DNA from: Escherichia coli | GTDB lineage: Bacteria; Pseudomonadota; Gammaproteobacteria; Enterobacterales; Enterobacteriaceae | NCBI RefSeq assembly: GCF_050920415.1 | Contig: NZ_CP169309.1 | DNA length: 64,000 nucleotides | Strand: one strand, 5' to 3' | Part shown: positions 1 through 64,000 of the stretch, in pieces | Layout of the letters: each line of letters starts with the position of its first letter | Position numbering within the stretch: position 1 is the first letter of the stretch | Program-made: the position numbers and the translations under genes | The notes under the pieces: generated by a model | What the model saw: only the letters and a program-made list of their open reading frames with translations | The model's database searches: none | What the model was told of the DNA's origin: nothing

Positions 1-45
1 AGCCTGGTGCATGAGCCGGGGAGCGCAAGGCAGACAATTCTGTAA

Positions 46-691
<646 letters not shown>

Positions 692-763
692 TTATTCCCA
701 AGAATTGATAGTGAGTGTAATATTCACGCGCTCAATTATCATAACTAATTCCTGGGGAATGCT

Positions 764-1804
764 ATGACTGGTCAGTCTTCATCTCAGGCGGCAACGCCCA
801 TTCAGTGGTGGAAACCCGCGCTTTTCTTTCTCGTTGTCATTGCTGGTCTCTGGTATGTGAAATGGCAACCTTACTACGGCAAAGCGTTTACCGCCGCCGA
901 AACTCACAACATCGGTAAATCAATACTCTCACAGGCGGATGCTAATCCGTGGCAGGCGGCGTTGGATTACGCGATGATCTATTTCCTCGCGGTATGGAAA
1001 GCGGCGGTGCTGGGAGTGATCCTCGGGTCGTTGATTCAGGTGCTGATCCCTCGTGACTGGCTGCTGCGTACGCTTGGGCAATCGCGCTTTCGCGGCACGC
1101 TGCTGGGAACGCTGTTTTCGCTGCCGGGCATGATGTGTACTTGCTGTGCGGCACCGGTCGCGGCGGGGATGCGTCGCCAACAGGTGTCGATGGGCGGGGC
1201 GCTGGCATTCTGGATGGGCAATCCGTTGTTAAATCCGGCGACGCTGGTGTTTATGGGTTTTGTCCTCGGCTGGGGCTTTGCGGCGATTCGTCTGGTGGCG
1301 GGACTGGTGATGGTGTTGCTGATTGCGACCCTGGTGCAAAAATGGGTGCGTGAAACACCGCAAACACAGGCACCGGTCGAAATTGATATGCCGGAAGTGC
1401 AGGGCGGATTCTTTAGCCGCTGGGGTAGGGCGCTATGGACGCTTTTCTGGAGTACGATCCCGGTATATATCCTTGCCGTACTGGCGTTGGGTGCCGCTCG
1501 CGTCTGGTTATTCCCCCATGCCGATGGTGCTGTCGATAACAGCCTGATGTGGGTGATTGCGATGGCGGTAGCGGGATGCTTGTTTGTCATTCCCACGGCA
1601 GCAGAAATTCCGATTGTACAAACGATGATGCTGGCAGGTATGGGAACCGCTCCGGCGCTGGCATTGTTGATGACGCTTCCTGCTGTAAGTTTGCCGTCGC
1701 TGATAATGTTGCGTAAAGCGTTCCCGGCGAAAGCCTTATGGCTGACGGGTGCGATGGTGGCGGTGTCTGGTGTGATTGTCGGCGGGCTGGCGCTGTTGTT
1801 CTGA
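764..1804 (+). CDS. yraQ: Putative permease YraQ (multi-pass inner membrane protein)
   Basis: 346-aa hydrophobic ORF matching the ORF track; synteny. Confidence 0.85.
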   Translation: MTGQSSSQAATPIQWWKPALFFLVVIAGLWYVKWQPYYGKAFTAAETHNIGKSILSQADANPWQAALDYAMIYFLAVWKAAVLGVILGSLIQVLIPRDWLLRTLGQSRFRGTLLGTLFSLPGMMCTCCAAPVAAGMRRQQVSMGGALAFWMGNPLLNPATLVFMGFVLGWGFAAIRLVAGLVMVLLIATLVQKWVRETPQTQAPVEIDMPEVQGGFFSRWGRALWTLFWSTIPVYILAVLALGAARVWLFPHADGAVDNSLMWVIAMAVAGCLFVIPTAAEIPIVQTMMLAGMGTAPALALLMTLPAVSLPSLIMLRKAFPAKALWLTGAMVAVSGVIVGGLALLF

Positions 1805-1819
1805 TTTGAGGGAAAACAT

Positions 1820-1996
1820 GTCGGATGCGGCGTAAACGCCTTATCCGACCTACGGTTTGCATCGTTGCAGGCCTGATAAGACGCGGCAAGCGTCGCATCA
1901 GGCAACGGCAGTCGGATGCGGCGCAGGCGCCTTATCCGACCTACGGTTTGTGTCGTGTAGGCCTGATAAGACGCGGCAAGCGTCGCATCAGGCATT
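1820..1996. repeat. REP/BIME cluster (several palindromic REP units)
   Basis: Repeated GCCTGATAAGACGCGGCAAGCGTCGCATCAGGC and CGGATGCGGCGTAAACGCCTTATCCGACCTACGG type palindromes between convergent yraQ and dolP. Confidence 0.85.
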
Positions 1997-2007
1997 ACAA
2001 GGTGCTG

Positions 2008-2583
2008 CTATTTAATAAACGTAAACGCTGTGGTTACACGTTTTACGCCGCTCACCCGACTGGCAATATCTGCCGCCGCTTTCGCTTCACGTTCAGTCAC
2101 CAGCCCCATCAGGAACACTTCACCGTTTTCGGTGGTCACTTTCACGTTGGACGATTTCACCAGGTCGCTGGTTAAGAGCTGCGAACGCACTTTGGTGGTG
2201 ATCCACGTATCGTTAGACGCTTCGCCCAGACCAATCGGCTGGCCCTGACGAATCTCGTTATACACTTCGTTGGCACCGTCTACGCCCATAGCAATCTGTT
2301 TGGCGCGAGCCGAAAGTTCAGCGTTTGGTGACTGCCCAACCAGCAGCACTTTGCCCTGATAGGCCGTTACATTAATGCGTGCTTCTTTCTTGATTTGTTC
2401 GTCTTTCGACAATGCGCTGTTCACGCGCACTTCCAGGGTTCCATCATCCACCTGGGTGCCGACACTGCGTGGGTCAGTTGCGGCTTTTGTACCCACAGCC
2501 GCGGTGCCCACTACGGCGGCAGCAACGCAACCTTGCAACAGCAGTGCGGAAATAAGGACTGCGATTGGCGATAATGCCTTCAT
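2008..2583 (-). CDS. dolP: Outer-membrane lipoprotein DolP (YraP), dual BON domain
   Basis: 191-aa ORF with lipoprotein signal peptide (LLQGC); synteny diaA-dolP. Confidence 0.9.
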   Translation of the reverse strand: MKALSPIAVLISALLLQGCVAAAVVGTAAVGTKAATDPRSVGTQVDDGTLEVRVNSALSKDEQIKKEARINVTAYQGKVLLVGQSPNAELSARAKQIAMGVDGANEVYNEIRQGQPIGLGEASNDTWITTKVRSQLLTSDLVKSSNVKVTTENGEVFLMGLVTEREAKAAADIASRVSGVKRVTTAFTFIK

Positions 2584-2592
2584 GTATTCTCC

Positions 2593-3183
2593 TTAAACAT
2601 CCTGGTGAGGGAAAAGCGTGTTATCGATCAGATCGCACAAGCAATTTACCGTCAGCATATGCATTTCCTGAATGCGAGCACTACGATGCGAAGGAATGCG
2701 GATCTCCACATCCTGTGGCCCTAACAACCCTGCAAGTTCACCGCCGTCATAGCCAGTCAATGCCACAATGGTCATATCACGCGTAACAGCAGCTTCTACT
2801 GCTTTTACGATATCGCGGCTGTTGCCACGGGTGGAAATGGCTAACAACACATCTCCCGCATGCCCCAGCGCCCGCACTTGTTTTGCATACACTTCATCAT
2901 GTAAGCGATCGTTGGCAATCGCCGTTAAGACAACATTATCAGTATTTAGTGCAATGGCAGGTAAGCTGGGCCGCTCCGTTTCGAATCGGTTGATCATGCT
3001 GGCAGCAAAATGCTGTGCATTGGCAGCGGAAGTTCCATTACCACAACAGAGGATTTTGTTGCCATTGAGCAGAGACTGAACCAGCGTCATGGCTGCACGG
3101 GAGATGGCATCCGGAAGCGCCTCTGCTGCCGCAATTTGAGTTTGAATGCTTTCAGTGAAGCAAGCTTTAATTCGTTCTTGCAC
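2593..3183 (-). CDS. diaA: DnaA initiator-associating protein DiaA (SIS domain)
   Basis: 196-aa ORF, SIS-domain phosphoheptose-isomerase-like sequence; synteny. Confidence 0.9.
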
Positions 3184-3202
3184 GCTAATCCTTAAACCTT
3201 AA

Positions 3203-3598
3203 TTATGAGTGGTCATTAAAGGCATCCTTAATCCACTCAACTTCATTCCCGGTGAAGGCTACCACATCGAACCGGCAATCCACAGTATCAAAACTCCCAT
3301 TATGACGCGCGAGCCACAAGCGGGCAGTCTGTAATAATTTGTGTTGTTTGCTGCGGGTCACACTGGCTGCCGCACCACCGTAAAGGGCTGAGCGGCGGTA
3401 ACGCACCTCGACAAAAACGGTGGTCCTGCCTTCACGCATTATCAGATCGATCTCGCCGCCACGCTCGTTCACGTTAGCGGCGACAAACCGCAGTCCTTTG
3501 CTCTCCAGCCAGCGACGCGCTTGTGCCTCCCACGCATCGCCGGTCTGTTTAGTGGTTAACTGGCGGGGACTACCTGACCTTGTTGGTACTGTAGCCAT
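3203..3598 (-). CDS. yraN: UPF0102 family protein YraN
   Basis: 131-aa ORF; overlaps the lpoA 3' end by about 43 bp. Confidence 0.85.
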
Positions 3599-5592
3599 GA
3601 TAACTTCCTGTTAATTACGCAATCCGGGTTAGCCGTCAGACTTCCGGTATTACCGTTGATTTCGAAACCCTGAACCTGGCGCATCTGTGAGAAATGATTT
3701 GCCAACGACCAGGCATCAACGCCCATCGCATACATGCGAGCCAGCGAATAATCGTTATTCACCGCACTGAGCGCCTGCTGCATTAATGGCAGATTACCGC
3801 CCGCCAGCATCGGGATTTCGCTATATTGCAAACCTTCCATTTCCAGACGGAAATCCGGACCCGCGGTGCCTTGTGCGCTTCGGGAGCTTGCGTACAGCGT
3901 TGCACCGCTCTGGCTACCGTTACGCATGGCGATCATCGGTTTGATAAAAGCGATTTCACCCGGCGTTGCCACAATGTACACCGCATCGACACGACCGCCA
4001 TTATTGGTGAACTGGTCATCGGTTGGCGTGGTTTGCAGCGTTGGATTGTTGGTCGTCATGCCGGAGTCGGTTGTTTCTCTGGGAGTAATCGGGCTACCGG
4101 TTAAAGCGATACCAGAACCACCGTTAACTCCCGCGCGTAATTCGCTGGTGGAACCAAATTTTTGTTGCAGAACGGTGCCGCCGCCCAGCTTCTGCCACTC
4201 TTGCGCAAACGCATTGGCTACGCGATCGCCCAGCGAACTGCGAGGGATCAGCACCAGTGGCGCTTGTTTACCCTGGTCACGAATATGACGCGCTGCATCG
4301 CGCGCTTCGTCTTCCGGTGAAAGCGCGAAGTAACAAATATTGACGCGGTTTTCGATATTTTCTGGCTGGTTCAGTGCCAGCACGTTCAGCGGGGTGTTGC
4401 TTTTCAGTAACTCTTCAACGTTATTTTTCAGCAACGGACCGACCACAATACTCGCGCCATCCTGCTGAACCTGGTTGAGGATCTGGCTAAGCGGTTGTGA
4501 TGAGGTATCATAAATTTTCAGCTCTGCGGATGGATTCGCGGGGGCGCTTACCGCCGCAGTGTTTGCCGCCGGGGCGCTTACAGGCACTGGTTGAGCCGCG
4601 GTTTCTTCGCCTGTCAGATCGCTAACCGAGGCTTGTGCCGGGCTGGCAACGCCGTCAACAGTTTGCTGCTGGGGTTGTTCTGCAACGTCTGCGATTGGTG
4701 CGGCAGTTGCCTGTGCCGCCACTGGCTGAGTGCCGATATTTTTCGCCGCTTCAAAGCCTTGCTGAATAGTGCGGCCAAATACCGCTGCCTGGCCATTCAG
4801 TGGCAACAGCAGGGCTATTTTGTTGGTTGACGCTGGTTTAAATGCTTTTACGTTTACCAACTGCGTAGGCAGCATTTTCGCGCCCGGGTTGTTCGGATAA
4901 CGTTTCTGCCAGTCGGCGATCCCAGCTTTCATCATGTCGGGATCGTTACGGTTATCAAACCAGACGCGCTGCAGATCAAGCCAGCCTTGCAGAATATTTT
5001 CGTCGGCGTTGATCACCAGCGTATTCGCCTGGTCCTGAGTCATGGAGGAGAGTGCCTGCCATGTAGCATCAATATTCTGTTGCTTTTCTTTCGCGCCGAG
5101 CAGGGGTTCCTGAGCAATTAAGGCGCGCAGTAAATCAATGGAAGGACGCCCCTGACTGGCATCGATTTTTGCCTGCCAGTAACGCGCCTGCTGGTTTTGA
5201 TCTAAATCGGCAGGTGTGATTTTCGCCAGCAGGGTTTGTGCGCCAGCAAAATCTTTCTGCGCCAGCTTAATTTCTACTGCCAGAAGAGTTTTCTCGCGAC
5301 GCTGGTAATCGTTCAGTTCCTGCGGCAGCTGGTTAAACAGCTCCACCGCCTGCCCGGTTTTACCTTCTTTCACCAGTGCACGAATGGCGAGTAATTGCCA
5401 GTTGATCCTGGTATCATCAGCGCTTTGCTGCATCTGCTGAAGATAAAAGGCAGAATCAGCCTGCGCCGTGCCCTGCATATAGGCAGTGGACTGATCGGGA
5501 GTATGGGTGCCACAACCGGCGAAAATCAGGGCTGCCAGAACAACAGGCAGACAACGCGCGGCTTTCAAACGAGAAAATGTTGAGGGTACCAT
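3556..5592 (-). CDS. lpoA: Penicillin-binding protein activator LpoA (outer-membrane lipoprotein)
   Basis: ORF 3556..5622 trimmed to the ATG at 5592 (MVPSTFSRL...); lipobox AGCG; TPR-like N-terminal region and periplasmic-binding-fold C-terminal region. Confidence 0.88.
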
Positions 5593-47949: not shown

Positions 47950-48293
47950 TCATTATTCCTGGTGAATCGGTTAACGCCACGCTGGTTTTAAAAGATGCAC
48001 TACCGCAATGTTATTGCTGTTTTGGTATGTTCTGCGGGTTTGATACATCAACACAGCCTGAACTATTCCCTGTTAAATCGTGAGATAAGAAAGCATTCAA
48101 AAGCATAAATTCAAATTGAATCTAATTGTAACAAAGGTCAACGTTGTTCGTTATCAAAATTACATGTCCGTGGAGTCTGATTTTGCTGAATGCAGGGGAG
48201 GGTGGCGAGAGGATTTACACAGGCTGACACTTTATACTTTTCGCTTACCGACGAGGCAAACAGGCGCGTCGTTGCGCCTGCCGAATGGGGATT

Positions 48294-49070
48294 TCATTTG
48301 CTGCCGCTGGTGGCCGTATCAAGATGCACAACGGGATTTTCGGCGAACAGATAGCGGTCGGCATTGAACTCGAAATCGTCGCTGGTTTCGTTAAATAACA
48401 TGATCTTGGTGTTTTCCAGATGCTGCCACATTGCCAGCTTCGCGGCATGGGGATCTTTACGAATTAACGCTTTGAGGATCTGATCGTGGTCATCGCACCA
48501 GTTATCGACAGTACGGGCATCAATATGCTCGTGCAGTTTTTTCCAGTATGGGTTATGGCTACGTTGGGTCCACATTTTTTCAACGATGGCTGCCAGGGCG
48601 GAGTTCTGCGTCGCCAGGGCAACCTGAATATGGAACTGCAAATCCCACTCGGAATCACGGAAGCATTGTTCGCCGCGCGCCTGCTCCTGGATGGCCATCA
48701 GTTTCATGATGTCCTGTTTGGTTACCTGGGTCGCTGCGAACTCGGCAATATTACTTTCGATGAGCTGACGTGCCTGAAGCAGCTCAAACGGACCGTAATT
48801 GGCGAATTCCATATTAGTGTCAGCTGATTGCTGATGGCGCGGCTGGTTGGAAACCACATGAATACCCGAGCCTTTACGCACCTCCACATAGCCTTCAACT
48901 TCAAGCATGATGATGGCTTCACGAACCACGGTGCGACTGACGTTCTTTTCATCGGCAATAAAGCGTTCAGCAGGCAGTTTATCACCCACCAGATAGACGC
49001 CCTGTTCGATGCGCTCTTTCAGATCAGCGGCAAGTTGTTGATACAAACGGCGTGGTTCAGTGATTTCCAT
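48294..49070 (-). CDS. exuR: GntR-family hexuronate regulon repressor ExuR
   Basis: ORF 48294..49085 trimmed to [13 protein letters not shown]...; GntR HTH plus FCD domain. Confidence 0.9.
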
Positions 49071-49199
49071 ATGCGCTCCAGGCATGATACGGCAGACTAT
49101 ATTTGTTATACCACTTTTGCGAGTTTAGCTCTACTCGCAGTGATGAAAAAGCCGCCTGAGAAGGCGGCTTTGAAGGGAAACTAAAACTTACACGAAGCC
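49071..49199 (-). promoter_or_regulatory. exuT-exuR intergenic region (exuR promoter, exuT terminator), copy A
   Basis: 129-bp intergenic region directly upstream of the intact exuR. Confidence 0.6.
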
Positions 49200-49405
49200 T
49201 TAATGTTGCGGTGCGGGATCGTTATGTGATTCCTGCGCCACCTCAATCGCCGGTTTGTGCAACACAGTCCAGATACCAGCGCACCCAGCAGGTCGAATAC
49301 TGCCAGAACTGCGAACAGCGGGCTGAAGCCGATGGTGTTGCACCGACTACCAGTGCAAACAGCGTACTTGCCAGCCATGCGGACATCCCGGTGAAATCGT
49401 TATCT
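49200..49405 (-). pseudogene. Degraded duplicate of the exuT 3' end (frameshifted fragment)
   Basis: Encodes ...TIGFSPLFAVLAVFDLLGAL matching the ExuT C-terminus, then frameshifted; no start codon or upstream part of the gene. Confidence 0.8.
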
Positions 49406-49465
49406 GCGCTCTTTCAGATCAGCGGCAAGTTGTTGATACAAACGGCGTGGTTCAGTGATTTCCAT
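49400..49465 (-). other. Truncated duplicate of the exuR 5' end: 21-codon [24 protein letters not shown] ending at a TAA created at the duplication junction
   Basis: Identical to exuR codons 1-20, then AGA TAA across the junction at 49405/49406. Confidence 0.75.
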
Positions 49466-49594
49466 ATGCGCTCCAGGCATGATACGGCAGACTATATTTG
49501 TTATACCACTTTTGCGAGTTTAGCTCTACTCGCAGTGATGAAAAAGCCGCCTGAGAAGGCGGCTTTGAAGGGAAACTAAAACTTACACGAAGCC
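49466..49594 (-). promoter_or_regulatory. exuT-exuR intergenic region, copy B (second copy of the exuR promoter; functional exuT terminator)
   Basis: Identical to 49071..49199. Confidence 0.6.
49541..49563 (-). terminator. Rho-independent terminator of exuT (identical copy at 49146..49168)
   Basis: GCCGCC-TGAGAA-GGCGGC hairpin followed by T5 on the minus strand. Confidence 0.8.
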
Positions 49595-50893
49595 TTAATG
49601 TTGCGGTGCGGGATCGTTATGTGATTCCTGCGCCACCTCAATCGCCGGTTTGTTCTGCAACACAGTCCAGATAACCAGCGCACCCAGCAGGTCGAATACT
49701 GCCAGAACTGCGAACAGCGGGCTGAAGCCGATGGTGTCAGCCAGTGCACCGACTACCAGTGCAAACAGCGTACTTGCCAGCCATGCGGACATCCCGGTTA
49801 AACCGTTCGCCGTCGCCACTTCGTTACGACCGAACACGTCAGAAGAGAGCGTAATCAGTGCGCCAGACAGGGCCTGGTGAGCAAAACCACCGATACACAG
49901 CAGCATAATCGCGACATACGGGTTAGTGAACAGACCGATCATCCCTGGGCCAATCATCAGCACCGCACCCAGCGTTACTACCATCTTACGGGAAACGATC
50001 AGGTTCACGCCAAACCAACGCTGGAACAGCGGCGGCAGGTAACCACCGAGGATACAACCAAGGTCAGCAAACAGCATCGGCATCCAGGCGAACATCGCGA
50101 TCTCTTTCAGGTTAAAGCCGTAAACTTTAAACATGAACAGCGGGATCCACGCGTTAAAAGTACCCCAGGCAGGTTCAGCCAGGAAACGCGGTAGCGCGAT
50201 ACCCCAGAACTGACGGTTACGCAGGATCTGACCAACGGACATTTTCTTCGCTGTGTCAACCTGGTGCTGGGCTTCCTGACCATTAATAATGTAGTCACGT
50301 TCTTCATCGGTCAGATGTTTCTGGTCGCGCGGATGCTTGTAGAAAATCAGCCATGCCATCGCCCAGATAAAGCTCAGCGCACCGGAGATGATAAATGCCA
50401 TCTGCCAGCTGTGCATCACGATTGCCCATACCACCAGCGGCGGCGCAATCATCGCACCAATCGAAGAACCTACGTTAAAGTAGCCGACCGCGATGGAACG
50501 CTCTTTTGCCGGGAACCATTCGGAACTGGCTTTCAGACCCGCCGGGATCATCGCCGCCTCTGCAGCACCTACCGCACCACGAGCAACCGCCAGGCCACCC
50601 CAGCTACCTGCCAGCGCGGTTGCGCCACAGAACACAGCCCACAGTACAGCAAACATTGCGTAACCGATTTTCGTACCCAGCACATCCAGTACATAACCTG
50701 CTACCGGTTGCATGACCGTATAAGCAGCAGAATAGGCTGCGATGATATAGGAATACTGTTGGGTGGAGATGTTTAACTCTTCCATCAGAGTTGGCGCAGC
50801 TGCCGCCACAGTGTTACGCGTCAGGTAACCAAGCACGGTGCCGAGCGTCACCAGTGCGATCATATACCAACGTAACCCTTTAATTTTACGCAT
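49595..50893 (-). CDS. exuT: Hexuronate (glucuronate/galacturonate) MFS transporter ExuT
   Basis: ORF 49595..51013 trimmed to MRKIKGLRWYMIALV... ATG at 50893. Confidence 0.9.
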   Translation of the reverse strand: MRKIKGLRWYMIALVTLGTVLGYLTRNTVAAAAPTLMEELNISTQQYSYIIAAYSAAYTVMQPVAGYVLDVLGTKIGYAMFAVLWAVFCGATALAGSWGGLAVARGAVGAAEAAMIPAGLKASSEWFPAKERSIAVGYFNVGSSIGAMIAPPLVVWAIVMHSWQMAFIISGALSFIWAMAWLIFYKHPRDQKHLTDEERDYIINGQEAQHQVDTAKKMSVGQILRNRQFWGIALPRFLAEPAWGTFNAWIPLFMFKVYGFNLKEIAMFAWMPMLFADLGCILGGYLPPLFQRWFGVNLIVSRKMVVTLGAVLMIGPGMIGLFTNPYVAIMLLCIGGFAHQALSGALITLSSDVFGRNEVATANGLTGMSAWLASTLFALVVGALADTIGFSPLFAVLAVFDLLGALVIWTVLQNKPAIEVAQESHNDPAPQH

Positions 50894-52788
<1,895 letters not shown>

Positions 52789-52802
52789 GGTCTGGGGTTG
52801 AT

Positions 52803-54290
52803 ATGCAATACATCAAGATCCATGCGCTGGATAACGTCGCGGTTGCTTTAGCAGATTTGGCGGAAGGCACAGAAGTCAGTGTCGATAACCAAACTGTCAC
52901 GCTGCGCCAGGATGTTGCTCGTGGACATAAATTTGCGTTAACGGATATCGCAAAAGGGGCCAACGTCATTAAATATGGCCTGCCGATTGGTTATGCATTG
53001 GCGGATATTGCGGCGGGGGAACACGTTCACGCCCACAATACGCGCACGAATCTCAGCGATCTGGATCAGTATCGCTATCAACCTGATTTTCAGGATCTGC
53101 CTGCGCAAGCGGCAGATCGTGAAGTGCAGATCTATCGTCGCGCTAACGGCGATGTCGGGGTGCGTAATGAGCTGTGGATCCTGCCAACCGTGGGTTGTGT
53201 TAACGGCATCGCGCGGCAGATCCAGAACCGTTTCCTGAAAGAGACCAACAACGCCGAAGGTACTGACGGCGTGTTCCTCTTCAGCCACACCTACGGCTGC
53301 TCGCAGCTGGGCGACGATCACATCAATACCCGCACCATGCTGCAAAATATGGTGCGCCACCCGAACGCGGGCGCAGTGCTGGTGATTGGCCTGGGTTGTG
53401 AAAACAACCAGGTTGCCGCATTCCGTGAAACGCTGGGCGATATCGATCCTGAACGCGTTCATTTCATGATCTGCCAACAGCAGGATGATGAGATCGAAGC
53501 CGGGATCGCGCATTTGCATCAGTTGTATAACGTAATGCGCAACGACAAACGTGAGCCGGGCAAACTCAGCGAACTGAAGTTTGGTCTGGAATGCGGTGGT
53601 TCTGACGGTCTTTCTGGTATTACTGCTAACCCAATGCTGGGGCGTTTCTCTGATTACGTCATTGCTAACGGCGGCACTACCGTACTGACCGAAGTGCCGG
53701 AGATGTTCGGCGCAGAGCAGTTGCTGATGGACCATTGTCGTGACGAAGCAACGTTTGAAAAACTGGTCACTATGGTCAACGACTTCAAGCAGTACTTTAT
53801 TGCCCATGACCAGCCTATCTACGAAAACCCATCGCCGGGGAACAAAGCGGGCGGTATCACCACGCTGGAAGACAAATCACTTGGCTGTACCCAGAAAGCG
53901 GGTTCCAGCGTCGTGGTTGACGTGCTGCGTTACGGCGAGCGTCTGAAAACGCCGGGGCTGAACTTGTTAAGTGCGCCGGGTAACGATGCCGTAGCGACCA
54001 GCGCCCTGGCGGGTGCGGGCTGCCATATGGTGCTGTTCAGTACTGGTCGTGGCACGCCGTATGGTGGATTTGTGCCGACGGTGAAAATCGCCACCAACAG
54101 TGAACTGGCGGCGAAGAAAAAACACTGGATCGACTTTGACGCGGGTCAGCTGATCCACGGTAAAGCGATGCCGCAGTTGCTGGAAGAATTTATCGACACC
54201 ATCGTTGAGTTTGCCAACGGTAAGCAAACCTGCAACGAGCGTAACGACTTCCGCGAACTGGCGATCTTTAAAAGCGGCGTAACGCTATAA
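52803..54290 (+). CDS. uxaA: Altronate dehydratase UxaA
   Basis: 495-aa ORF, SAF plus dehydratase domains, paralogous to GarD. Confidence 0.92.
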   Translation: MQYIKIHALDNVAVALADLAEGTEVSVDNQTVTLRQDVARGHKFALTDIAKGANVIKYGLPIGYALADIAAGEHVHAHNTRTNLSDLDQYRYQPDFQDLPAQAADREVQIYRRANGDVGVRNELWILPTVGCVNGIARQIQNRFLKETNNAEGTDGVFLFSHTYGCSQLGDDHINTRTMLQNMVRHPNAGAVLVIGLGCENNQVAAFRETLGDIDPERVHFMICQQQDDEIEAGIAHLHQLYNVMRNDKREPGKLSELKFGLECGGSDGLSGITANPMLGRFSDYVIANGGTTVLTEVPEMFGAEQLLMDHCRDEATFEKLVTMVNDFKQYFIAHDQPIYENPSPGNKAGGITTLEDKSLGCTQKAGSSVVVDVLRYGERLKTPGLNLLSAPGNDAVATSALAGAGCHMVLFSTGRGTPYGGFVPTVKIATNSELAAKKKHWIDFDAGQLIHGKAMPQLLEEFIDTIVEFANGKQTCNERNDFRELAIFKSGVTL

Positions 54291-54314
54291 AGTCGAAATG
54301 AGTTGTTAATAAAA

Positions 54315-54347
54315 AACGGCGTTTCATAATGTGAAGCGCCGTTTGCT
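54315..54347 (+). terminator. Putative terminator after uxaA
   Basis: Imperfect hairpin AACGGCGTTTC...GAAGCGCCGTT followed by TGCTTTT. Confidence 0.5.
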
Positions 54348-54372
54348 TTTCCATACCTGCTAAGGATTTATC

Positions 54373-54924
54373 ATGACCGCGTATTGGCTGGCCCAGGGCG
54401 TGGGTGTCATCGCCTTTCTGATTGGTATCACAACATTTTTCAATCGTGACGAACGTCGCTTCAAAAAGCAGCTTTCGGTCTATAGCGCCGTTATTGGCGT
54501 GCATTTTTTTCTTATGGGCACCTATCCCGCTGGTGCCAGTGCCATTCTTAATGCCATTCGTACGCTGATTACCTTACGCACGCGCAGCTTATGGATAATG
54601 GCGATCTTCATCGTGCTGACGGGAGGAGTTGGCCTGGCGAAGTTCCATCATCCCATGGAGCTGCTGCCGGTTATCGGCACGATTGTCAGTACCTGGGCGC
54701 TGTTCCGTTGTAAAGGGCTGACCATGCGCTGCGTGATGTGGTTTTCTACTTGTTGCTGGTTAACTCACAACATTTGGGCCGGGTCGATTGGTGGCACAAT
54801 GATTGAAGGCAGTTTTCTGCTGATGAATGGCCTGAATATCATTCGTTTTTGGCGTATGCAGAGAAGGGGAATTGATCCGTTTAAAGTGGAGAAAACCCCT
54901 TCCGCCGTAGACGAAAGGGGCTAA
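54373..54924 (+). CDS. ygjV: Inner membrane protein YgjV
   Basis: 183-aa hydrophobic ORF; stop lies 3 bp from the convergent sstT stop. Confidence 0.85.
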   Translation: MTAYWLAQGVGVIAFLIGITTFFNRDERRFKKQLSVYSAVIGVHFFLMGTYPAGASAILNAIRTLITLRTRSLWIMAIFIVLTGGVGLAKFHHPMELLPVIGTIVSTWALFRCKGLTMRCVMWFSTCCWLTHNIWAGSIGGTMIEGSFLLMNGLNIIRFWRMQRRGIDPFKVEKTPSAVDERG

Positions 54925-54927
54925 GTA

Positions 54928-56172
54928 TTAGTTACGCAGGGCGCTATTTGCCAGACGATCGTCTTCCGCCTGGCAAGCTGCTGCAGTGAACAGCACGTCA
55001 GTTGAAGAGTTCAGCGCGGTTTCGCAAGAGTCCTGCAATACGCCGATGATAAAGCCGACGGCAACCACCTGCATGGCGATATCGTTCGAAATACCGAACA
55101 TATTACAGGCCAGCGGGATCAGCAGCAGAGAACCACCTGCCACGCCGGACGCACCACAGGCGCACAGAGAAGCCACTACGCTCAACAGCAGCGCCGTTGG
55201 TAGATCCACCGGAATACCCAGCGTATTAACCGCAGCCAGCGTCAACACGGTAATGGTGATTGCTGCGCCCGCCATATTGATCGTTGCACCTAGCGGAATA
55301 GAAACGGAATAGGTATCACGATCCAGATTCAGCTTTTCACACAGCGCCATATTCACCGGAATGTTCGCCGCAGAGCTGCGGGTGAAGAAGGCGTACACGC
55401 CGCTTTCGCGCAGGCACAGCAGCACCAGCGGGAACGGGTTACGACGAATTTTCCACCACACCAGCAATGGGTTAACCACCAGCGCCACCAGTAACATACA
55501 GCCAACCAGCACCACCAGCAGTTGCGCGTAGCCCCACAGTGTGGAGAAACCGGTGGTAGCCAGGGTAGAAGAAACCAACCCAAAAATACCGATCGGTGCG
55601 AAGCGAATGACCAGTTTCACCATAAAGGTGACGGCATTCGACATATCGTTGACCAGGTTTTTGGTGGTCTCGTTACCGTGACGCAGTGCGAAACCGAGGC
55701 CAATTGCCCACACCAGAATCCCGATGTAGTTACCTTTCAGCAGCGCGTCGATGGGGTTGGAAACCATGCTCATTACCAGCCCGCGCATCACTTCGACAAT
55801 GCCTGACGGCGGCGAAATATCACCCGCGCTACTGGACAAGTGCAGGGTAGAAGGGAAGGCAAAGCTGAAGACTACTGCGGCCAGAGCAGCAGAGAAGGTG
55901 CCCAGTAGATAGAGGAACAAAATAGGACGGATATTGGTTTTCTGCCCGTGCTGGTGGTTAGCAATAGACGCCATTACCAGCATCAACACCAGGATGGGGG
56001 CAACGGCTTTCAGTGCGCCGACGAACAAAGTACCTAACAGACCAACAGCTTCCGCCGCGGGTTTTGAGATCCATGCCAGAAGAATCCCCAGAACAAGGCC
56101 GACCAGGATTTGTTTTACCAGGCTGCCATGAGCCAGACGCCGGAATAGCCCCGGTGAACGTTGCGTAGTCAT
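54928..56172 (-). CDS. sstT: Na+-coupled serine/threonine transporter SstT
   Basis: 414-aa multi-pass ORF, DAACS family. Confidence 0.9.
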
Positions 56173-56641
56173 TTTTCGATCCTTTCATTGTGTTGTCGCA
56201 CATCCCTGGTGCGTTCTGTCGACGCATCTTTCAGGATGTAACAAAGTGTTTGCAAGGTCGAGTATAAGGAAAGTTACAGCTTCGGGAAGCGAAAAATGCT
56301 GGATTTTAAAGAGAGGTCATATTTTGCAACTTAATGGTTACATTTATTTGACATAAACAGAGGGAAGGACTGGCTGCTGAGACTGATTAGATAACATATA
56401 GGCAAAACTATTTGGCATATGAGAACTGTTGCGCTCCTGTGATGTACGATGCCACATAAAGTCACTGGCGCAGGGAGCGGCCAATCGCCGCTGCCCCGGC
56501 CTGCAGGGAACGCTTCGGTGATTTTGACGCCACTAACACCCAAGCGATCTTTTTGTAAAGAGCTATAAGTCGGTTACATACTTAATCGCTCATCTTTGTC
56601 TGGAAGGAGTTATCACCCGTAGTGGCTTAATATACAGCGAA

Positions 56642-57607
56642 TTATCCCACCCGCTGCTTATCATGCCGATAATTCACCCAGGCGTTGATAATAAACGTCA
56701 TCACCAGAATACCAAACACCACGCCCAGCGAAACGGCGATCGGAATATGGTAGAAATCGACAATCAGCATCTTGATACCGATAAACACCAGAATTACCGC
56801 CAGACCATATTTGAGCATCGAGAAACGTTCTGCTACGCCCGCCAACAGGAAATACATCGCACGCAGGCCGAGGATCGCAAACAGGTTTGAGGTCAGCACA
56901 ATAAACGGATCGGTGGTCACGGCGAAGATAGCCGGAATGCTATCCACGGCGAAAATCACGTCGCTCAACTCCACCAGAATCAGTACCAGCATCAGCGGCG
57001 TGGCATACAACAAACCATTCTTACGCACAAAGAAATGCTCGTTGTCGATGGTGTCGGTCATGCGCAAATGACCGCGCAGCCAGCGCACCAGCGGCTTGTC
57101 ACCAATACCTGATTCATCTTCATGAGCCAGCGCCATCTTCACGCCAGTAAACAGCAGGAAGGCACCGAAGATATACAGGATCCAGTCGAACTGCGAAATC
57201 AGCCAGCTGCCAGTGAAGATCATGATGGTACGCAGAACAATCGCCCCGAGTACGCCATACACGAGCACGCGGCGTTGTAATGCCGCCGGAACAGAGAAAT
57301 AGCTGAACAACATCAGCCAGACGAAGACGTTATCGACCGCCAGTGATTTCTCAATCAGATAACCGGTGAGAAACGCCAGTGCCTGCGGGTCCGCGACTTC
57401 GCGCCCCTGCGTCTGGACTAAATACCACCAGAAAGCGGCGTTAAACAGTAACGATAGCGTCACCCAGACCAGCGACCAGGCTGCAGCCTGTTTCATGGTC
57501 ATGGCATGCGCGCCACGACGCCCCTGCAACAACAGGTCGATAGCCAGCATAATGGCGACAACGACAGCGAATCCGCCCCATAGCAACGGCGTGCCGACAG
57601 TATTCAT
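56642..57607 (-). CDS. alx: TerC-family inner membrane protein Alx (YgjT)
   Basis: 321-aa multi-pass ORF. Confidence 0.9.
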
Positions 57608-57800
57608 AGAAGTTCCTTACACATAAAAAAACGGCCAACGTCGGAAGACGTCAGCCGCTGCTTTTTATGCATAGACCTCGCCTTCCGGCAAGGTCTCACT
57701 TACAACAAAAAAGGAATACGTCTGCGTATTCCTTTCGGGTTGCCCGGTGACCGGATGTGGTTTTTCACACATCGTAATGACGATCGACCGGCAATGAAGT
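57608..57800 (-). promoter_or_regulatory. alx 5' leader (pH-responsive riboregulatory element region)
   Basis: Long structured leader with a stem-loop plus T7 immediately before the alx RBS and a second stem-loop GGAATACG-TCTG-CGTATTCC upstream; boundaries approximate. Confidence 0.5.
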
Positions 57801-57889
57801 TACTCCCCTTTGCAGGTAACAAAGTATGACAGACCATTCGGTCAGTCAATGGTCTGTTACATCCCTTTTACACTGTTTTACTTTGGCTA

Positions 57890-58876
57890 TTATAGTTTTA
57901 CGCTATCTGCCGGAAAAATCACCCCGGTCTGGCGGCGGATCTCGGTCAGCAGCCTGGCGGTGATACGACTGACCGCCAGCCCTGGATGATCTACCAGATG
58001 TTCATCCACCAGGGTAGCGAACAGCTCTGCTTCGTACAGCATGGTATTAATATGCTGCGGTTGGGTAAGATCCTGCATCTGGCTGCCGCGCGGCACAAAG
58101 CAAACTTTCTGGCATTCAGACAGTTTTTCAATCACCAGCGATCCCGCTTCGCCCTGAATCTCACTTGCCAGCACAGAATCACTGACCTTTGAGTGCTGCA
58201 AGGTAACGCTGAAATCACCGTAATCCATCACCACCACGCCGTGGGCATCCACACCACTTGCCAGCAAACTGGCGGTTGCCTGCACGCTTTTCGGTTCACC
58301 AAATAACGCCACCGCCGACGCCAGACAGTAAAAGCCGATATCCATAATTGAACCGTTGGAGAATGCCGGATTGAAGGTGTTGGGATTCTCGCCGTCCAGA
58401 TAACGTTGATATCGCGAGGAATATTGGCAATAGTTGAAAAAGACTTTACGCAATTTGCCAACTTTCGGCAGTACCTGGCGTAACAAATGGAAATTCGGCA
58501 GGCTGGCGGTTTTAAATGCCTCAAACAGCACCACCTGATTTTCCCGCGCACAGGCAATGGCGGCATCCACTTCCGCCAGATTCGACGCCAGCGGTTTCTC
58601 GCAAATCACATGAATTTTATGGCTAAGGAAAAGTTGTGTCTGGGAAAAATGCAGGGCATTCGGGCTGGCAATATACACCGCGTCAATGGCATCGCTTTCT
58701 GCCATCGCTTCCAGCGATGTAAACAGATGCTCGACAGAAAAATCATTGGCGAAGTGCTGGGCCTGTTCAAGGCTGCGGGAATAGACAGCGGTTAACTTGT
58801 ATTTACCGCTCTCATGGGCGGCCTCGACGAACTGGCGGGTGATCCAGTTCGTGCCAATCACAGCGAAACGTATCAT
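57890..58876 (-). CDS. ygjR: Gfo/Idh/MocA-family NAD(P)-dependent oxidoreductase YgjR
   Basis: ORF 57890..58894 trimmed to MIRFAVIGTNWITRQF (Rossmann motif). Confidence 0.85.
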   Translation of the reverse strand: MIRFAVIGTNWITRQFVEAAHESGKYKLTAVYSRSLEQAQHFANDFSVEHLFTSLEAMAESDAIDAVYIASPNALHFSQTQLFLSHKIHVICEKPLASNLAEVDAAIACARENQVVLFEAFKTASLPNFHLLRQVLPKVGKLRKVFFNYCQYSSRYQRYLDGENPNTFNPAFSNGSIMDIGFYCLASAVALFGEPKSVQATASLLASGVDAHGVVVMDYGDFSVTLQHSKVSDSVLASEIQGEAGSLVIEKLSECQKVCFVPRGSQMQDLTQPQHINTMLYEAELFATLVDEHLVDHPGLAVSRITARLLTEIRRQTGVIFPADSVKL

Positions 58877-58954
58877 AACGCGTGGATACTCCATAAAGGG
58901 ATTCTGCCGTCAATGTAGCACGCCTTTTTCATCTTCGACGTGCGCAGATACGCA

Positions 58955-59647
58955 TTATTCTTTCGCCGGACAGCCATGCTCGCTAAACGGCCCAATCATG
59001 ACCGACGGCCCGAGATATTTCGGCTGTCGATGGAGGATTTTCGCGTCAATCACTGCGCTGACGCGAGCGAGTTTCTCCCGCAGCTGAGTATAAAAACCAT
59101 GTTTCATATTCAGGTCTGGTGCGTTAAACCCGATGGCATCGATGCCGTACTGTTTTGCCAGCCAGATGGCGCGTTGGTTATGAAATTCTTGCGAAATAAT
59201 AGTGATATGGCTTTCACCAAACACCTTTTTGGCACGCACCACCGAATCAAGCGTTGAGAATCCGGCGTAGTCGCAGAAGATGACTTTTGCGGGTACGCCT
59301 TTAGCGATCAAAGCCTGCTGCATGCCTGAGGCTTCATCGTAATTTTTACGTCCGTTATCGCCGCTCACTAGTAGCCATTTCACTTTTCCGGCGTGGTACA
59401 ACTCTGCTGCGGTATCAATACGTCGGGTAAAGTAGCGATTACCCGGCCTCGCCCCCAGCAATAAACCCACGTTACGCGCCGGAACGGCGTTGACATCGCT
59501 CCAGGTCAGCTGCTTGCTGGCGTTGACCATAACGCGATCGGCAATAAAAATGGTCGCTCCTGCTATAAGCAACAATAAACAGCCAAGCTTTAGAGTCCGG
59601 CGAGAAAAACAAATACGGAGAAGAAGGCGGGCAAAGGCGCGCAGCAT
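58955..59647 (-). CDS. ygjQ: DUF218 (YdcF-like) domain protein YgjQ
   Basis: 230-aa ORF with N-terminal transmembrane anchor. Confidence 0.85.
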
Positions 59648-59723
59648 GGTCGTTATCCTTAACGAAAGGGGGGAGGTCGATTTTAGGCGCTAAAGGAAGA
59701 AAAGATAACGCCTGATATCATTT

Positions 59724-60227
59724 TCAGATTTTGTCCTGCCCAAGCGACAACTGCGTTAGCCACAGACGAGTGTCGAATTCAAGCTGGTGGTACTGCGGCT
59801 CCATATGACAGCACAATTGATAGAATGCTTTGTTGTGCTCTTTCTCCTTCAGGTGCGCCAACTCGTGCACCACGATCATGCGCAAAAACGGTTCCGGCGC
59901 GTTGCGAAACACGGTAGCGACGCGGATCTCTGCTTTTGCTTTCAGCTTGCCGCCCTGCACACGCGAAACAGCGGTATGTAACCCGAGCGCGTTTTTCAGC
60001 ACATGGATCTTGTTGTCATACATCACTTTATTGATCGGCGGGGCATTGCGCAGAAACTGATTCTTCAGATCCTGAGTATATTGCCAGAGGGCTTTATCGG
60101 TGGCGTAGTCGTGCGTTCCTGGATAGCGTTTTGCCAGCACATCGCCCAGACGCTGTTCATTAATCAGCGTGCGCACCTGGGAAAGCAACTGTTCGGGATA
60201 ACCCTGAAGATAAGTAAGATTGCTCAT
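59724..60227 (-). CDS. ygjP: Putative zinc metallohydrolase YgjP (WLM/DUF45 family, HExxH)
   Basis: ORF 59724..60263 trimmed to [15 protein letters not shown]; HELAH motif. Confidence 0.85.
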
Positions 60228-60311
60228 AACCGCCCACGAAAAAGAGAAAAAGGGTATACTCACGCACCCTTTTCAGGGGCAACGTCGAAATTTTATCATT
60301 CAGGAGGGCCG

Positions 60312-61448
60312 ATGAGCCACTTAGACAACGGTTTCCGTTCACTGACACTACAACGTTTTCCGGCGACGGATGACGTTAACCCGCTACAGGCGTGGGAAGC
60401 GGCAGATGAATATTTGCTGCAACAGTTGGACGACACAGAAATCCGCGGCCCGGTGTTAATCCTGAATGATGCCTTTGGTGCGTTAAGTTGTGCGCTGGCG
60501 GAACATAAGCCGTACAGCATTGGCGACTCATACATCAGCGAACTGGCGACGCGCGAGAATTTACGCCTCAACGGGATTGATGAATCGAGCGTGAAGTTTC
60601 TCGACAGCACCGCTGACTACCCGCAACAGCCGGGCGTGGTGCTGATCAAAGTGCCGAAAACACTGGCATTGCTGGAACAGCAACTGCGCGCATTGCGCAA
60701 AGTAGTCACGCCGGATACACGTATTATTGCCGGTGCTAAAGCCCGTGACATTCACACCTCCACGCTGGAACTGTTCGAAAAAGTGCTCGGCCCGACCACC
60801 ACCACGCTGGCATGGAAGAAAGCGCGCCTGATTAACTGCACTTTCAACGAGCCGCCGCTGGTTGATGCACCGCAGACCGTTAGCTGGAAGCTGGAGGGTA
60901 CTGACTGGACTATCCACAACCATGCGAATGTCTTCTCACGCACCGGGCTTGATATTGGCGCGCGCTTCTTTATGCAGCATCTGCCAGAGAATCTCGAGGG
61001 TGAGGTTGTCGATCTCGGTTGTGGTAACGGCGTTATTGGCCTGACGCTGCTTGATAAAAACCCGCAGGCGAAAGTGGTGTTTGTCGATGAATCACCGATG
61101 GCGGTTGCTTCCAGCCATTTGAATGTTGAAACCAACATGCCAGAGGCGTTGGATCGCTGCGAGTTTATGATCAACAACGCGCTCTCCGGCGTGGAGCCGT
61201 TCCGCTTTAATGCTGTGCTCTGCAACCCGCCGTTTCACCAGCAACATGCACTGACCGATAACGTTGCCTGGGAAATGTTCCACCACGCGCGCCGCTGCCT
61301 GAAAATCAACGGCGAGCTGTATATCGTTGCCAACCGTCACCTGGATTACTTCCATAAACTGAAGAAAATTTTTGGCAACTGCACCACCATTGCCACCAAT
61401 AATAAATTTGTGGTGCTGAAAGCGGTGAAGCTGGGGCGTCGTCGGTAA
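60312..61448 (+). CDS. rlmG: 23S rRNA m2G1835 methyltransferase RlmG
   Basis: ORF 60003..61448 trimmed to [16 protein letters not shown]; the upstream in-frame extension is antisense to ygjP. Confidence 0.9.
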
Positions 61449-61463
61449 GATTGACAGCTACCT

Positions 61464-61495
61464 GCCGGATGCGGCGTAAACGCCTTATCCGGCAA
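61464..61495. repeat. REP element
   Basis: TGCCGGATGCGGCGTAAACGCCTTATCCGGCA. Confidence 0.85.
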
Positions 61496-61613
61496 TGTCT
61501 GCCCAGTTCTGGAATCGCGCTTCCATAAAACAAAAAATCCCTGTCACCATCCTCTACATTCTCTTGTTTAGCGTTTTTCTACGTTTATTCTTCCGTCACA
61601 CAGATAAATTCAT

Positions 61614-61663
61614 CCGTTGCCAATCTGTCAACGGATGTTATCATGTTGCCAATTTGTCAACGG
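61614..61663. promoter_or_regulatory. higBA promoter with two tandem imperfect palindromes (candidate HigA operators)
   Basis: CCGTTGCCAATCTGTCAACGG (61614..61634) and GTTGCCAATTTGTCAACGG (61645..61663) directly upstream of higB. Confidence 0.6.
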
Positions 61664-61675
61664 ACGTGATGAAGA

Positions 61676-61990
61676 ATGCACCTGATAACTCAAAAAGCAT
61701 TGAAAGATGCTGCGGAAAAATACCCGCAACATAAAACGGAGTTGGTGGCTCTGGGGAACACGATTGCTAAGGGATATTTCAAAAAACCTGAGTCATTAAA
61801 AGCAGTATTCCCTTCTCTGGATAACTTCAAATATCTGGATAAGCATTATGTTTTCAATGTCGGGGGCAATGAATTACGTGTTGTAGCAATGGTCTTTTTT
61901 GAATCGCAAAAGTGCTACATACGTGAAGTTATGACGCATAAAGAATACGATTTCTTTACCGCCGTTCATCGTACTAAGGGGAAAAAATGA
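61676..61990 (+). CDS. higB: mRNA interferase toxin HigB (RelE/ParE superfamily)
   Basis: 104-aa ORF; 4-bp ATGA overlap with higA. Confidence 0.88.
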   Translation: MHLITQKALKDAAEKYPQHKTELVALGNTIAKGYFKKPESLKAVFPSLDNFKYLDKHYVFNVGGNELRVVAMVFFESQKCYIREVMTHKEYDFFTAVHRTKGKK

Positions 61991-62403
61991 TTGCGATTGC
62001 CGACATCTTGCAAGCAGGAGAAAAGCTAACTGCTGTGGCACCTTTTTTGGCGGGTATTCAGAACGAGGAACAATACACCCAGGCGCTGGAACTGGTAGAT
62101 CATCTGCTGCTCAACGATCCTGAAAACCCCTTGCTGGATCTGGTGTGTGCCAAAATAACCGCGTGGGAAGAATCAGCGCCCGAATTTGCTGAATTTAATG
62201 CCATGGCTCAAGACATGCCTGGCGGTATAGCTGTGATTCGTACCCTTATGGATCAATATGGTTTAACCCTTTCCGATCTGCCGGAAATTGGCAGTAAATC
62301 GATGGTGTCACGCGTTTTGAGCGGGAAGAGGAAATTAACGCTGGAACACGCTAAAAAACTGGCAACGCGATTCGGCATTTCTCCCGCCTTGTTTATTGAT
62401 TAA
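61987..62403 (+). CDS. higA: Antitoxin HigA (Xre-type HTH)
   Basis: 138-aa ORF immediately downstream of higB. Confidence 0.88.
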   Translation: MIAIADILQAGEKLTAVAPFLAGIQNEEQYTQALELVDHLLLNDPENPLLDLVCAKITAWEESAPEFAEFNAMAQDMPGGIAVIRTLMDQYGLTLSDLPEIGSKSMVSRVLSGKRKLTLEHAKKLATRFGISPALFID

Positions 62404-62410
62404 CGCGACG

Positions 62411-62433
62411 TGCCGGATGCGTCACATCCGGCA
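62411..62433. terminator. Stem-loop between convergent higA and fadH
   Basis: GCCGGATG-CGTCA-CATCCGGC hairpin; no clear U-tract. Confidence 0.4.
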
Positions 62434-62447
62434 CTTCAAATAACGAT

Positions 62448-64000
62448 TTAAATCTCCAGCGCCAACCGTGTTCCCTGGGCAATTGCCCGTCGTGCGTCCA
62501 GCTCCATAGCCACATCGCAGCCGCCAATTAAATGCACGGTTTTCCCGCTATCAATGAGCGGTTGTGCCAGCGTGCGGTTTGGCTCCTGCCCCGCGCAGAT
62601 CACCACATGATCTACCGCCAAAATTTGCGGTTCGCCGTTGATCACCACATGCAGCCCTTCATCGTCGATCTTCTGGTAACTTACGCCTGGGATCATTTTC
62701 ACGCCGCGCGCGAGCAGGGTGGTGCGATGGATCCAGCCGGTGGTTTTGCCTAACCCTTGTCCTGGTTTGCTGGCTTTGCGTTGAAGCATCACAATCTGTC
62801 GCGGGCTACGGGGGATCTGCATTCCCTGCGGGCTTAACCCACCACCCTGTTGCAGGCTACTGTCGATTCCCCACTCATTACAAAACTCGGTGATATTCTG
62901 GCTGGTGGACTCCCCTGGCTGACTCAAATACATCGCTGTATCAAAGCCAATCCCACCACAACCAATGATGGCGACGTTGTTGCCCACCGGCGCTTTGTCG
63001 CGCAGTACGTCGAGATAACTCAACACCTTCGGATGATCGATCCCGTCGATGGGCGGAATGCGCGGTACGATCCCACTGGCGAGGATCGTTTCATCGAACG
63101 CCTTTAACTGATCTGCGGTCACGGTGTGATTAAGTTTCAGTGTCACGCCAGTCACTTCGATCATCCGGCGGTAGTAGCGCAATGTTTCGTAAAATTCCTC
63201 TTTGCCGGGGATCTGTTTGGCGATATTAAACTGCCCGCCGATCTCGCTATGTGCATCAAACAACGTTACCTGATGACCACGCGCCGCCGCATTGATGGCA
63301 AACGCCAGCCCCGCCGGACCTGCGCCGACCACCGCCAGATTTTTTTTCTGCACGGCGGGAAGGATCGGCATTTTGGTTTCGTGGCAGGCGCGAGGATTCA
63401 CCAGACACGAGGTGACCTTGCCGACAAAGATCTGATCGAGACAGGCCTGATTGCAGCCAATGCAGGTGTTGATCTCATCGGCTCGCCCCGATTGCGCTTT
63501 TGACAGCAGCTCCGCATCAGCAAGAAACGGTCGCGCCATCGATACCATATCGGCATCACCGCGCGAGAGAATATCGTCGGCAACCTGCGGATCGTTAATC
63601 CGGTTGGTGGTCACCAGCGGCAATGAGACGTGACCTTTCAGTTTGCGTGTGACCCAGCTAAATGCGCCGCGCGGCACTGGCGTGGCGATGGTCGGAATCC
63701 GCGCTTCATGCCAGCCTATTCCAGTGTTGATAATGGTTGCGCCCGCCGCTTCAATGGCCTGCGCCAGTTCTACCGTTTCGGTAAAAGTCCCGCCGCCTTC
63801 TACCAGGTCGAGCATCGACAGCCGATAGATAATAATGAAGTCGTTACCGACGCGCTCGCGCACCGCACGTACCACTTCAATAGCAAACCGCATCCGGTTG
63901 CGGTAATCGCCGCCCCACTGGTCGCTACGCTGGTTGGTGCGCAGAGTCAGAAATTCGTTGATCAAATACCCTTCAGAGCCCATCACTTCGACGCCATCGT
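62448..64000 (-). CDS. fadH: 2,4-dienoyl-CoA reductase FadH (C-terminal portion; N-terminus lies beyond the window)
   Basis: Reading frame open to the window edge; FAD/NAD(P)-binding GxGxxG motifs (VGAGPAGL, IIGCGGIGFD); stop at 62448. Confidence 0.88.
   Translation of the reverse strand, partial: DGVEVMGSEGYLINEFLTLRTNQRSDQWGGDYRNRMRFAIEVVRAVRERVGNDFIIIYRLSMLDLVEGGGTFTETVELAQAIEAAGATIINTGIGWHEARIPTIATPVPRGAFSWVTRKLKGHVSLPLVTTNRINDPQVADDILSRGDADMVSMARPFLADAELLSKAQSGRADEINTCIGCNQACLDQIFVGKVTSCLVNPRACHETKMPILPAVQKKNLAVVGAGPAGLAFAINAAARGHQVTLFDAHSEIGGQFNIAKQIPGKEEFYETLRYYRRMIEVTGVTLKLNHTVTADQLKAFDETILASGIVPRIPPIDGIDHPKVLSYLDVLRDKAPVGNNVAIIGCGGIGFDTAMYLSQPGESTSQNITEFCNEWGIDSSLQQGGGLSPQGMQIPRSPRQIVMLQRKASKPGQGLGKTTGWIHRTTLLARGVKMIPGVSYQKIDDEGLHVVINGEPQILAVDHVVICAGQEPNRTLAQPLIDSGKTVHLIGGCDVAMELDARRAIAQGTRLALEI

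Follow-up and report, generated by a model that had tools for sequence, protein, structure and literature searches.

A private, imperfect tandem duplication at the exuT-exuR junction of an Escherichia coli chromosome, probably an assembly artefact

In Escherichia coli the normal arrangement at the exuT-exuR locus is a single junction, in which the two genes are separated by a spacer of 129 bp, and every comparison genome that we studied is single-copy in this respect. A 64,000-nucleotide stretch of the E. coli contig NZ_CP169309.1 (assembly GCF_050920415.1), which was analysed as a whole and is hereafter called the window, departs from this arrangement in that the junction is present twice, with about 395 bp of extra DNA. 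One copy is perfect and the other is defective. The question raised by this locus is whether such a pair of unequal copies records an episode in the evolution of the strain or the way in which its chromosome was put together. We confirm by repeat search and MAFFT alignment that an imperfect tandem duplication of about 395 bp lies across the exuR-exuT junction, as an original prediction made from the letters of the window had proposed, and we find it to be private to this one sequence. As to its cause, we place a little more than even confidence in the view that it is an artefact of assembly or finishing and not a product of evolved biology.

The duplication goes far past what coincidence could give, and consists of two units in tandem, head-to-tail. 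The first, copy A, occupies 49010-49404 (395 nt), and the second, copy B, occupies 49405-49810 (406 nt); the existence of the repeat was foreseen, with each boundary set one position too far to the right (49011..49405 and 49406..49811). No foreign DNA intervenes between the copies, and the feature is a contiguous segment repeated head-to-tail. The repeat search resolved it into three co-linear blocks. The first (49010-49258 vs 49405-49653) is 249 nt long with 100% identity at a spacing of 395, and is made up of 61 nt from exuR (20 codons and 1 nt), the whole 129-nt spacer and the last 59 nt of exuT, of which the stop codon is part. Its identity had been recognized beforehand, with lengths given as about 248 bp in all and about 55 bp for exuT. 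Two shorter blocks come after it, one of 64 nt (spacing 399, 100% identity) and one of 63 nt (spacing 406, 97% identity). Tandem Repeats Finder, applied to 48000-51000, reported nothing. Copy B is identical to the single-copy sequence of a sister genome, NZ_CP169399.1 (E. coli MFDS1022581), and runs into an intact exuT, and the left part of copy A runs into an intact exuR.

The defects of copy A are few, of particular kinds and confined to one end. Aligned by MAFFT against copy B, it displays a 3-nt deletion after 49258 (TTC/TCT), a 1-nt deletion near 49275 (one A of GATAACC) and a 7-nt deletion of CAGCCAG between 49338 and 49339, along with substitutions at 49393 (G for T), 49397 (T for C) and 49402-49403 (AT for CG). 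The three deletions and the cluster of substitutions at the junction had all been read correctly from the letters of the window. Position 49404 is ambiguous, and counts as a fifth substitution if the junction is placed inside a short microhomology described below; the four or five substitutions all lie at most 12 nt from the junction. All three indels are deletions, and two of the substitutions are adjacent at the very end of the copy. The changes are restricted to the last 146 nt, at distances of about 146, 130, 66, 12, 8 and 1-3 nt from the junction, so that their frequency rises toward it, and their density of about 5% is similar to that of raw long-read error. The placement of all six events within the last 148 of the 406 alignment columns has a probability of p = 0.002. 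Copy B and the other 63.6 kb of the window are clean, with 0 indels and 3 single-nucleotide polymorphisms (SNPs) relative to the sister genome.

The time available for such changes can be bounded by the closest relatives. The sister genome aligns to the whole window with a single copy of the exuT-exuR junction, and outside the feature it differs at 3 SNPs (716, 53217 and 53885) and by 0 indels. A second relative, the draft genome GCA_015290185.1, was reached through a lineage-restricted YgjR allele; it is 100.000% identical to 49405-64000 (14.6 kb, 0 differences), differs on the left side only by copy A's own changes, and is likewise single-copy. The first of the SNPs lies in the yraR-yraQ intergenic region and the other two in uxaA. 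At 53217 the G of the sister is private (UxaA Q139E) and the window has the common allele, and at 53885 both alleles are found in other E. coli strains; the uxaA DNA lineage is itself rare, being represented at an identity of at least 99% in 1 of 5,419 genomes. As the uxaA alleles of the window are shared with other E. coli and the G of the sister is private, the window appears to derive from an independent natural isolate and not from an edited version of the sister. At the divergence of the sister, 0.007 changes are expected per 146 nt, as against the at least six events observed (P for six or more ~1e-16). Taken together with the absence of the duplication from both clone-mates, this disparity excludes mutational decay of an old duplication as the source of the defects.

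Wider searches gave the same picture. Among the 5,426 complete E. coli genomes, a 1,201-nt query matched 5,422 as two overlapping pieces on an 806-bp stretch, which denotes a single copy, and a 131-nt junction query was always split in these matching genomes, with its pieces about 400 bp apart. The junction itself was absent from all 5,426 genomes. A degenerate pattern that covered both the observed junction and its clean microhomology version had 0 matches in 100,044 species-representative genomes, 0 in metagenome contigs and 0 in the 15 loci retrieved. At the protein level, an exact look-up of seven duplication-specific open reading frames (ORFs) found none of them in a collection of 15 billion proteins, and a homology search with the junction-spanning ORF of 122 aa recovered only proteins that match its single-copy antisense parts, and none across the junction. 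The UxaA protein of the window is a common allele (16,170 blocks); the junction is lacking at all 10 places among the matches listed, and the exuT-exuR spacing at these places is 129 nt wherever exuR is present. The YgjR allele is rarer (126 blocks), and the one representative place listed for it is the single-copy clone-mate. The duplication is therefore private to this one sequence, and is not found even in near-identical clone-mates. The distal part of copy A (49240-49404) was also compared with 5,416 genomes, in which its best match is 92.5% identical. This match is the resident allele, the gap being made up by copy A's 11 deleted bases and 2 substitutions, and none of the 5,416 genomes shares any deletion of copy A or has an allele closer to it than the strain's own exuT.

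These observations suggest that the divergence of copy A looks like uncorrected sequencing error and not like mutation. A gradient of changes at the density of raw reads, set in an otherwise indel-free window, fits a consensus drawn from one or a few raw long reads; moreover, the extra copy is private to one assembly, and the density of errors at its join is far above that of the rest. Duplications of start/end overlaps, ranging from a few bases to tens of kilobases, are documented in long-read bacterial assemblies; polishers leave them unrepaired, and after rotation of the record they become mid-sequence insertions (PMC6966772; 10.1101/2021.07.04.451066). At the exuT-exuR locus, two sequence ends with an overlap of about 400 bp might have been joined untrimmed, these ends being either the two extremities of a linear long-read contig that represents the circular chromosome or those of a long-read bridge; alternatively, a single read or a very small number of reads might be all that underlies the extra copy. 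The first ~250 nt of copy A, about one read length, could then have been corrected by polishing reads that were anchored in the unique flank on the exuR side, and reads from the true exuT 3' end would map preferentially to the perfect copy B, so that the last 146 nt of copy A, adjoining the false junction, would stay uncorrected. The original prediction had taken the concentration of divergence near the breakpoint as an argument against an assembly error. We consider the reverse more likely, in that errors gathered at a false or weakly supported join within an otherwise clean assembly are what an overlap of start and end or an unpolished join would leave behind (PMC6966772; 10.1101/2021.07.04.451066). 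Three points weigh on the other side. The start of copy B is perfect, though both raw contig ends should be poor. A pentamer, GTTCG, stands in register at the two breakpoints, as slippage or a template switch would predict and arbitrary contig ends would not. Finally, the mechanism of the artefact, like the part given to polishing, is an inference from the sequence.

The pentamer is our reason for retaining a main rival. The single-copy parent has GTTCG at each of the two breakpoints, exactly in register (49004-49008 and 49805-49809 in the window), a coincidence that random pairs of breakpoints in the sister sequence reach with a probability of 0.0015, or of 0.005-0.012 with looser windows. 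Tandem duplication between short microhomologies is a class of event already known from E. coli. The segment of 406 bp might have been duplicated in tandem, really and very recently, by slippage or a template switch between the pentamers, either in the isolate or in only part of the culture that was sequenced; copy A would in that case owe its changes to consensus errors or to a mutation shower of the kind associated with microhomology-mediated break-induced replication (MMBIR). The register of the pentamer (p ~0.0015-0.012), the perfect head-to-tail orientation and the integrity of both flanking genes speak in favour of such an event, to which we assign an appreciable though minor share of the probability. 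However, fresh copies should match, and here at least six events, three deletions and two adjacent substitutions among them, have accumulated in 146 nt. The repeat is contiguous and head-to-tail, as a microhomology-mediated duplication should be, but its copies are neither identical nor diverged in proportion to age. The pentamer, furthermore, is not preserved at the junction of the window, which reads GTTAT and not GTTCG, and the most parsimonious junction is blunt and 1 nt off the pentamer. A perfect tandem identity of 249 nt would be readily lost by homologous recombination unless it were selected, and no benefit is apparent; in addition, neither of the two clone-mates has the duplication, nor does any other genome searched. 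A more specific version, in which a one-step, error-prone, MMBIR-like template switch between the GTTCG pentamers brought with it a dense mutation shower in the ~150 nt by the junction, strikes us as improbable. To our knowledge, such a density of mutations is unreported for break-associated mutagenesis or error-prone synthesis in bacteria, which weighs against a mutation shower in vivo. If this version were true, the locus would be an example, from a natural isolate, of junction-proximal hypermutation during the formation of a duplication in E. coli.

Deliberate or synthetic alteration, whether in an engineered strain or as an in silico plant, would entail the copying of a 406-bp segment in tandem and the degradation of one copy. 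It would account for a feature that is unique to the window in every collection searched and for a pattern of mutations that fits no natural evolutionary timescale. Against it, all the bases are drawn from the local locus, with nothing foreign and no trace of a vector, scar or cassette, and elsewhere the window behaves as an independent natural isolate, as is seen in the shared alleles at 53217 and 53885 and in the 100% match of the draft genome. Random planting would not lead one to expect the error gradient (p = 0.002) or the microhomology, and we regard an intervention of this kind as unlikely. The two natural histories that the original prediction had entertained, an old duplication and recombination with a diverged allele, fare worse still and are very improbable even when combined. 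For an old duplication, in which a useless exuT fragment decayed as a pseudogene and the promoter and the exuR start were conserved, it may be said that all the changes fall in the non-functional exuT fragment and are biased to deletions. Yet the duplication is absent from the sister (3 SNPs in 64 kb), from the other clone-mate (0 differences in 14.6 kb) and from the 5,426 complete genomes; the expectation of 0.007 changes is far exceeded, the exuT fragment is unchanged over the 59 nt closest to its stop codon, and the idea survives only with many independent and precise losses. These objections leave it with a very slight chance. That recombination or gene conversion brought in the distal part of copy A from a diverged allele or a paralogue of exuT would agree with the clustering of the differences, but no closer allele exists among the 5,416 genomes, in which the best match of 92.5% is the resident allele. 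Moreover, long perfect blocks alternate with frameshifting deletions, where a diverged allele would show scattered synonymous changes, and a functional allele would not carry such deletions. This is in our opinion the least credible of the explanations.

Certain short sequences at the junction recur elsewhere in the window, and we count none of them as evidence. Three junction substitutions (49396-49403) convert ACCGTTCG to ATCGTTAT, an 8-mer that is also found at 49219-49226, 177 nt upstream in the same copy, and at 49614-49621 (chance estimate ~2%). Similarly, the 10-mer AAATCGTTAT recurs at ~62440 on the minus strand (chance estimate ~12%). The recurrence of ATCGTTAT could be a templated change or a coincidence.

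The assignment of the two genes to exuR and exuT proved correct, and the features of the locus are collected in Table 1. Read along the minus strand, the order is exuT, terminator, spacer, exuR stub, exuT 3' fragment, second terminator, second spacer and exuR. The extra DNA thus gives the locus one more terminator, one more exuR promoter region, an exuR stub of 21 codons and a dead fragment of exuT. The fragment is frameshifted through the 7-nt and 1-nt deletions, and the TAA that closes the exuR stub is a product of the substituted bases at the junction. Folding of the terminator hairpin gave -21.6 kcal/mol (z = -3.8). A simple promoter/terminator scan of 48900-49900 returned no sites.

Table 1. 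Coordinates of the genes, spacers, terminators and repeat units at the duplicated exuT-exuR junction (positions in the window)
Feature	Position	Strand	Basis
exuR, intact coding sequence of 258 aa, with the copy-A spacer before it	48294..49070	-	coordinates transferred from the NZ_CP169399.1 annotation
Copy A, defective extra copy	49010..49404	.	repeat search, alignment
exuT-exuR spacer, copy A, 129 nt, ahead of intact exuR	49071..49199	-	
Terminator hairpin, second copy, in copy A	49148..49171	-	repeat search, folding
Dead exuT 3' fragment, equivalent to the last 71 codons and the stop	49200..49404	-	
Error-dense segment of copy A	49259..49404	.	alignment, sister comparison
Junction of the copies (between 49404 and 49405)	49399..49409	.	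alignment, sister comparison
exuR stub, truncated: codons 1-20, Arg, TAA stop (21 codons)	49400..49465	-	
Copy B	49405..49810	.	repeat search, alignment, sister and draft genome comparison
exuT-exuR spacer, copy B, 129 nt, with terminator and exuR promoter region	49466..49594	-	
exuT intrinsic terminator hairpin, copy B, the one actually 3' of exuT	49543..49566	-	folding
exuT, intact coding sequence, 432 aa, ends in copy B, followed by the copy-B spacer	49595..50893	-	

The copy-B spacer would, to judge from its position, drive only the 21-codon stub. Since exuT and exuR keep their native coding sequences, promoter and terminator, no phenotype is expected, regardless of whether the duplication is physically real. 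ExuR has been described as an autorepressor (PMC9369180), and its operator has presumably been duplicated along with the spacer. A near-palindromic box of the GntR type, AAGTGGTATAACAAAT, is present in the exuR promoter region of both spacers, at 49101-49116 and again at 49496-49511, on the minus strand. We regard it as a candidate operator for autoregulation by ExuR/UxuR, found with a search pattern that was partly derived from the same sequence. We claim no ExuR/UxuR operator from the search of the duplicated spacer, the partly self-derived pattern having missed the uxaC-exuT control region.

The comparison of loci uncovered variation of other kinds near this junction. Several other E. coli strains have a fimbrial usher/adhesin gene pair (with TcfC and CfaE-like Pfam matches) immediately next to the exuT 3' end, in the place that exuR takes in the window. 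The pair was seen at loci L005, L008, L009, L010 and L014 (positions 1-3717) and in two further genome matches, and in some lineages the exuT-exuR spacer thus appears, from its gene neighbours, to serve naturally as a site where a genomic island inserts. Two database 'proteins' (P0001 and P0002) have unrelated N-termini fused to an ORF antisense to the exuR 5' end, equivalent to ~48985-49184 on the plus strand. P0002, from an 8.8-kb NCBI contig, carries an N-terminal portion of a glycosyl hydrolase (PF01074), and P0001 comes from an ENA contig of 944 bp. Both look like products of chimeric or rearranged contigs, broken within the first ~30 exuR codons, near but not at the breakpoint described above. 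Far from the locus, at 1820-1994 between yraQ and dolP, lie two tandem units of ~90 nt with 89-97% identity, which are also present in the sister genome. They are built of palindromic elements of the GCCTGATAAGACGCGGCAAGCGTCGCATCAGGC type and of the GTCGGATGCGGCG...CCTTATCCGAC type, and we judge them to be an ordinary cluster of repetitive extragenic palindromes or bacterial interspersed mosaic elements (REP/BIME).

With exuT, exuR, the native spacer, the promoter region and the terminator all intact, the duplication has little biological weight. Its main practical value is that of a quality flag, because the source assembly probably has an uncorrected join at this point, and its annotation would bring in an exuT pseudogene and small ORFs, all of them spurious. 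Should both the duplication and the mutations prove physically real, the locus would be of moderate interest as the footprint of an error-prone formation of a duplication.

Three kinds of known system offer themselves for comparison. Decaying duplicates of gene fragments resemble the locus in having a frameshifted 3' gene fragment beside an intact copy of the same gene, but the amount of change seen here is incompatible with a near-zero divergence from relatives that lack the duplication. Microhomology-mediated tandem duplications, formed by RecA-independent slippage or template switching of the MMBIR type, are matched in the head-to-tail arrangement, the size of a few hundred bp and, less certainly, the 5-nt GTTCG at both parental breakpoints; they are not matched in that the copies differ by at least six changes in 146 nt, the pentamer is altered, the clone-mates are without the duplication and there is no support from the population. 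The start/end-overlap or unpolished-join errors described in the benchmarking by Wick and Holt and in the Trycycler preprint differ in that the overlap here is short (~400 bp), the start of copy B is error-free and a pentamer stands in register at the breakpoints. With these errors the locus shares an extra tandem copy that is private to one assembly, errors that are gathered at the join and left unrepaired by polishers, and a position that, after rotation of the record, is that of a mid-sequence insertion.

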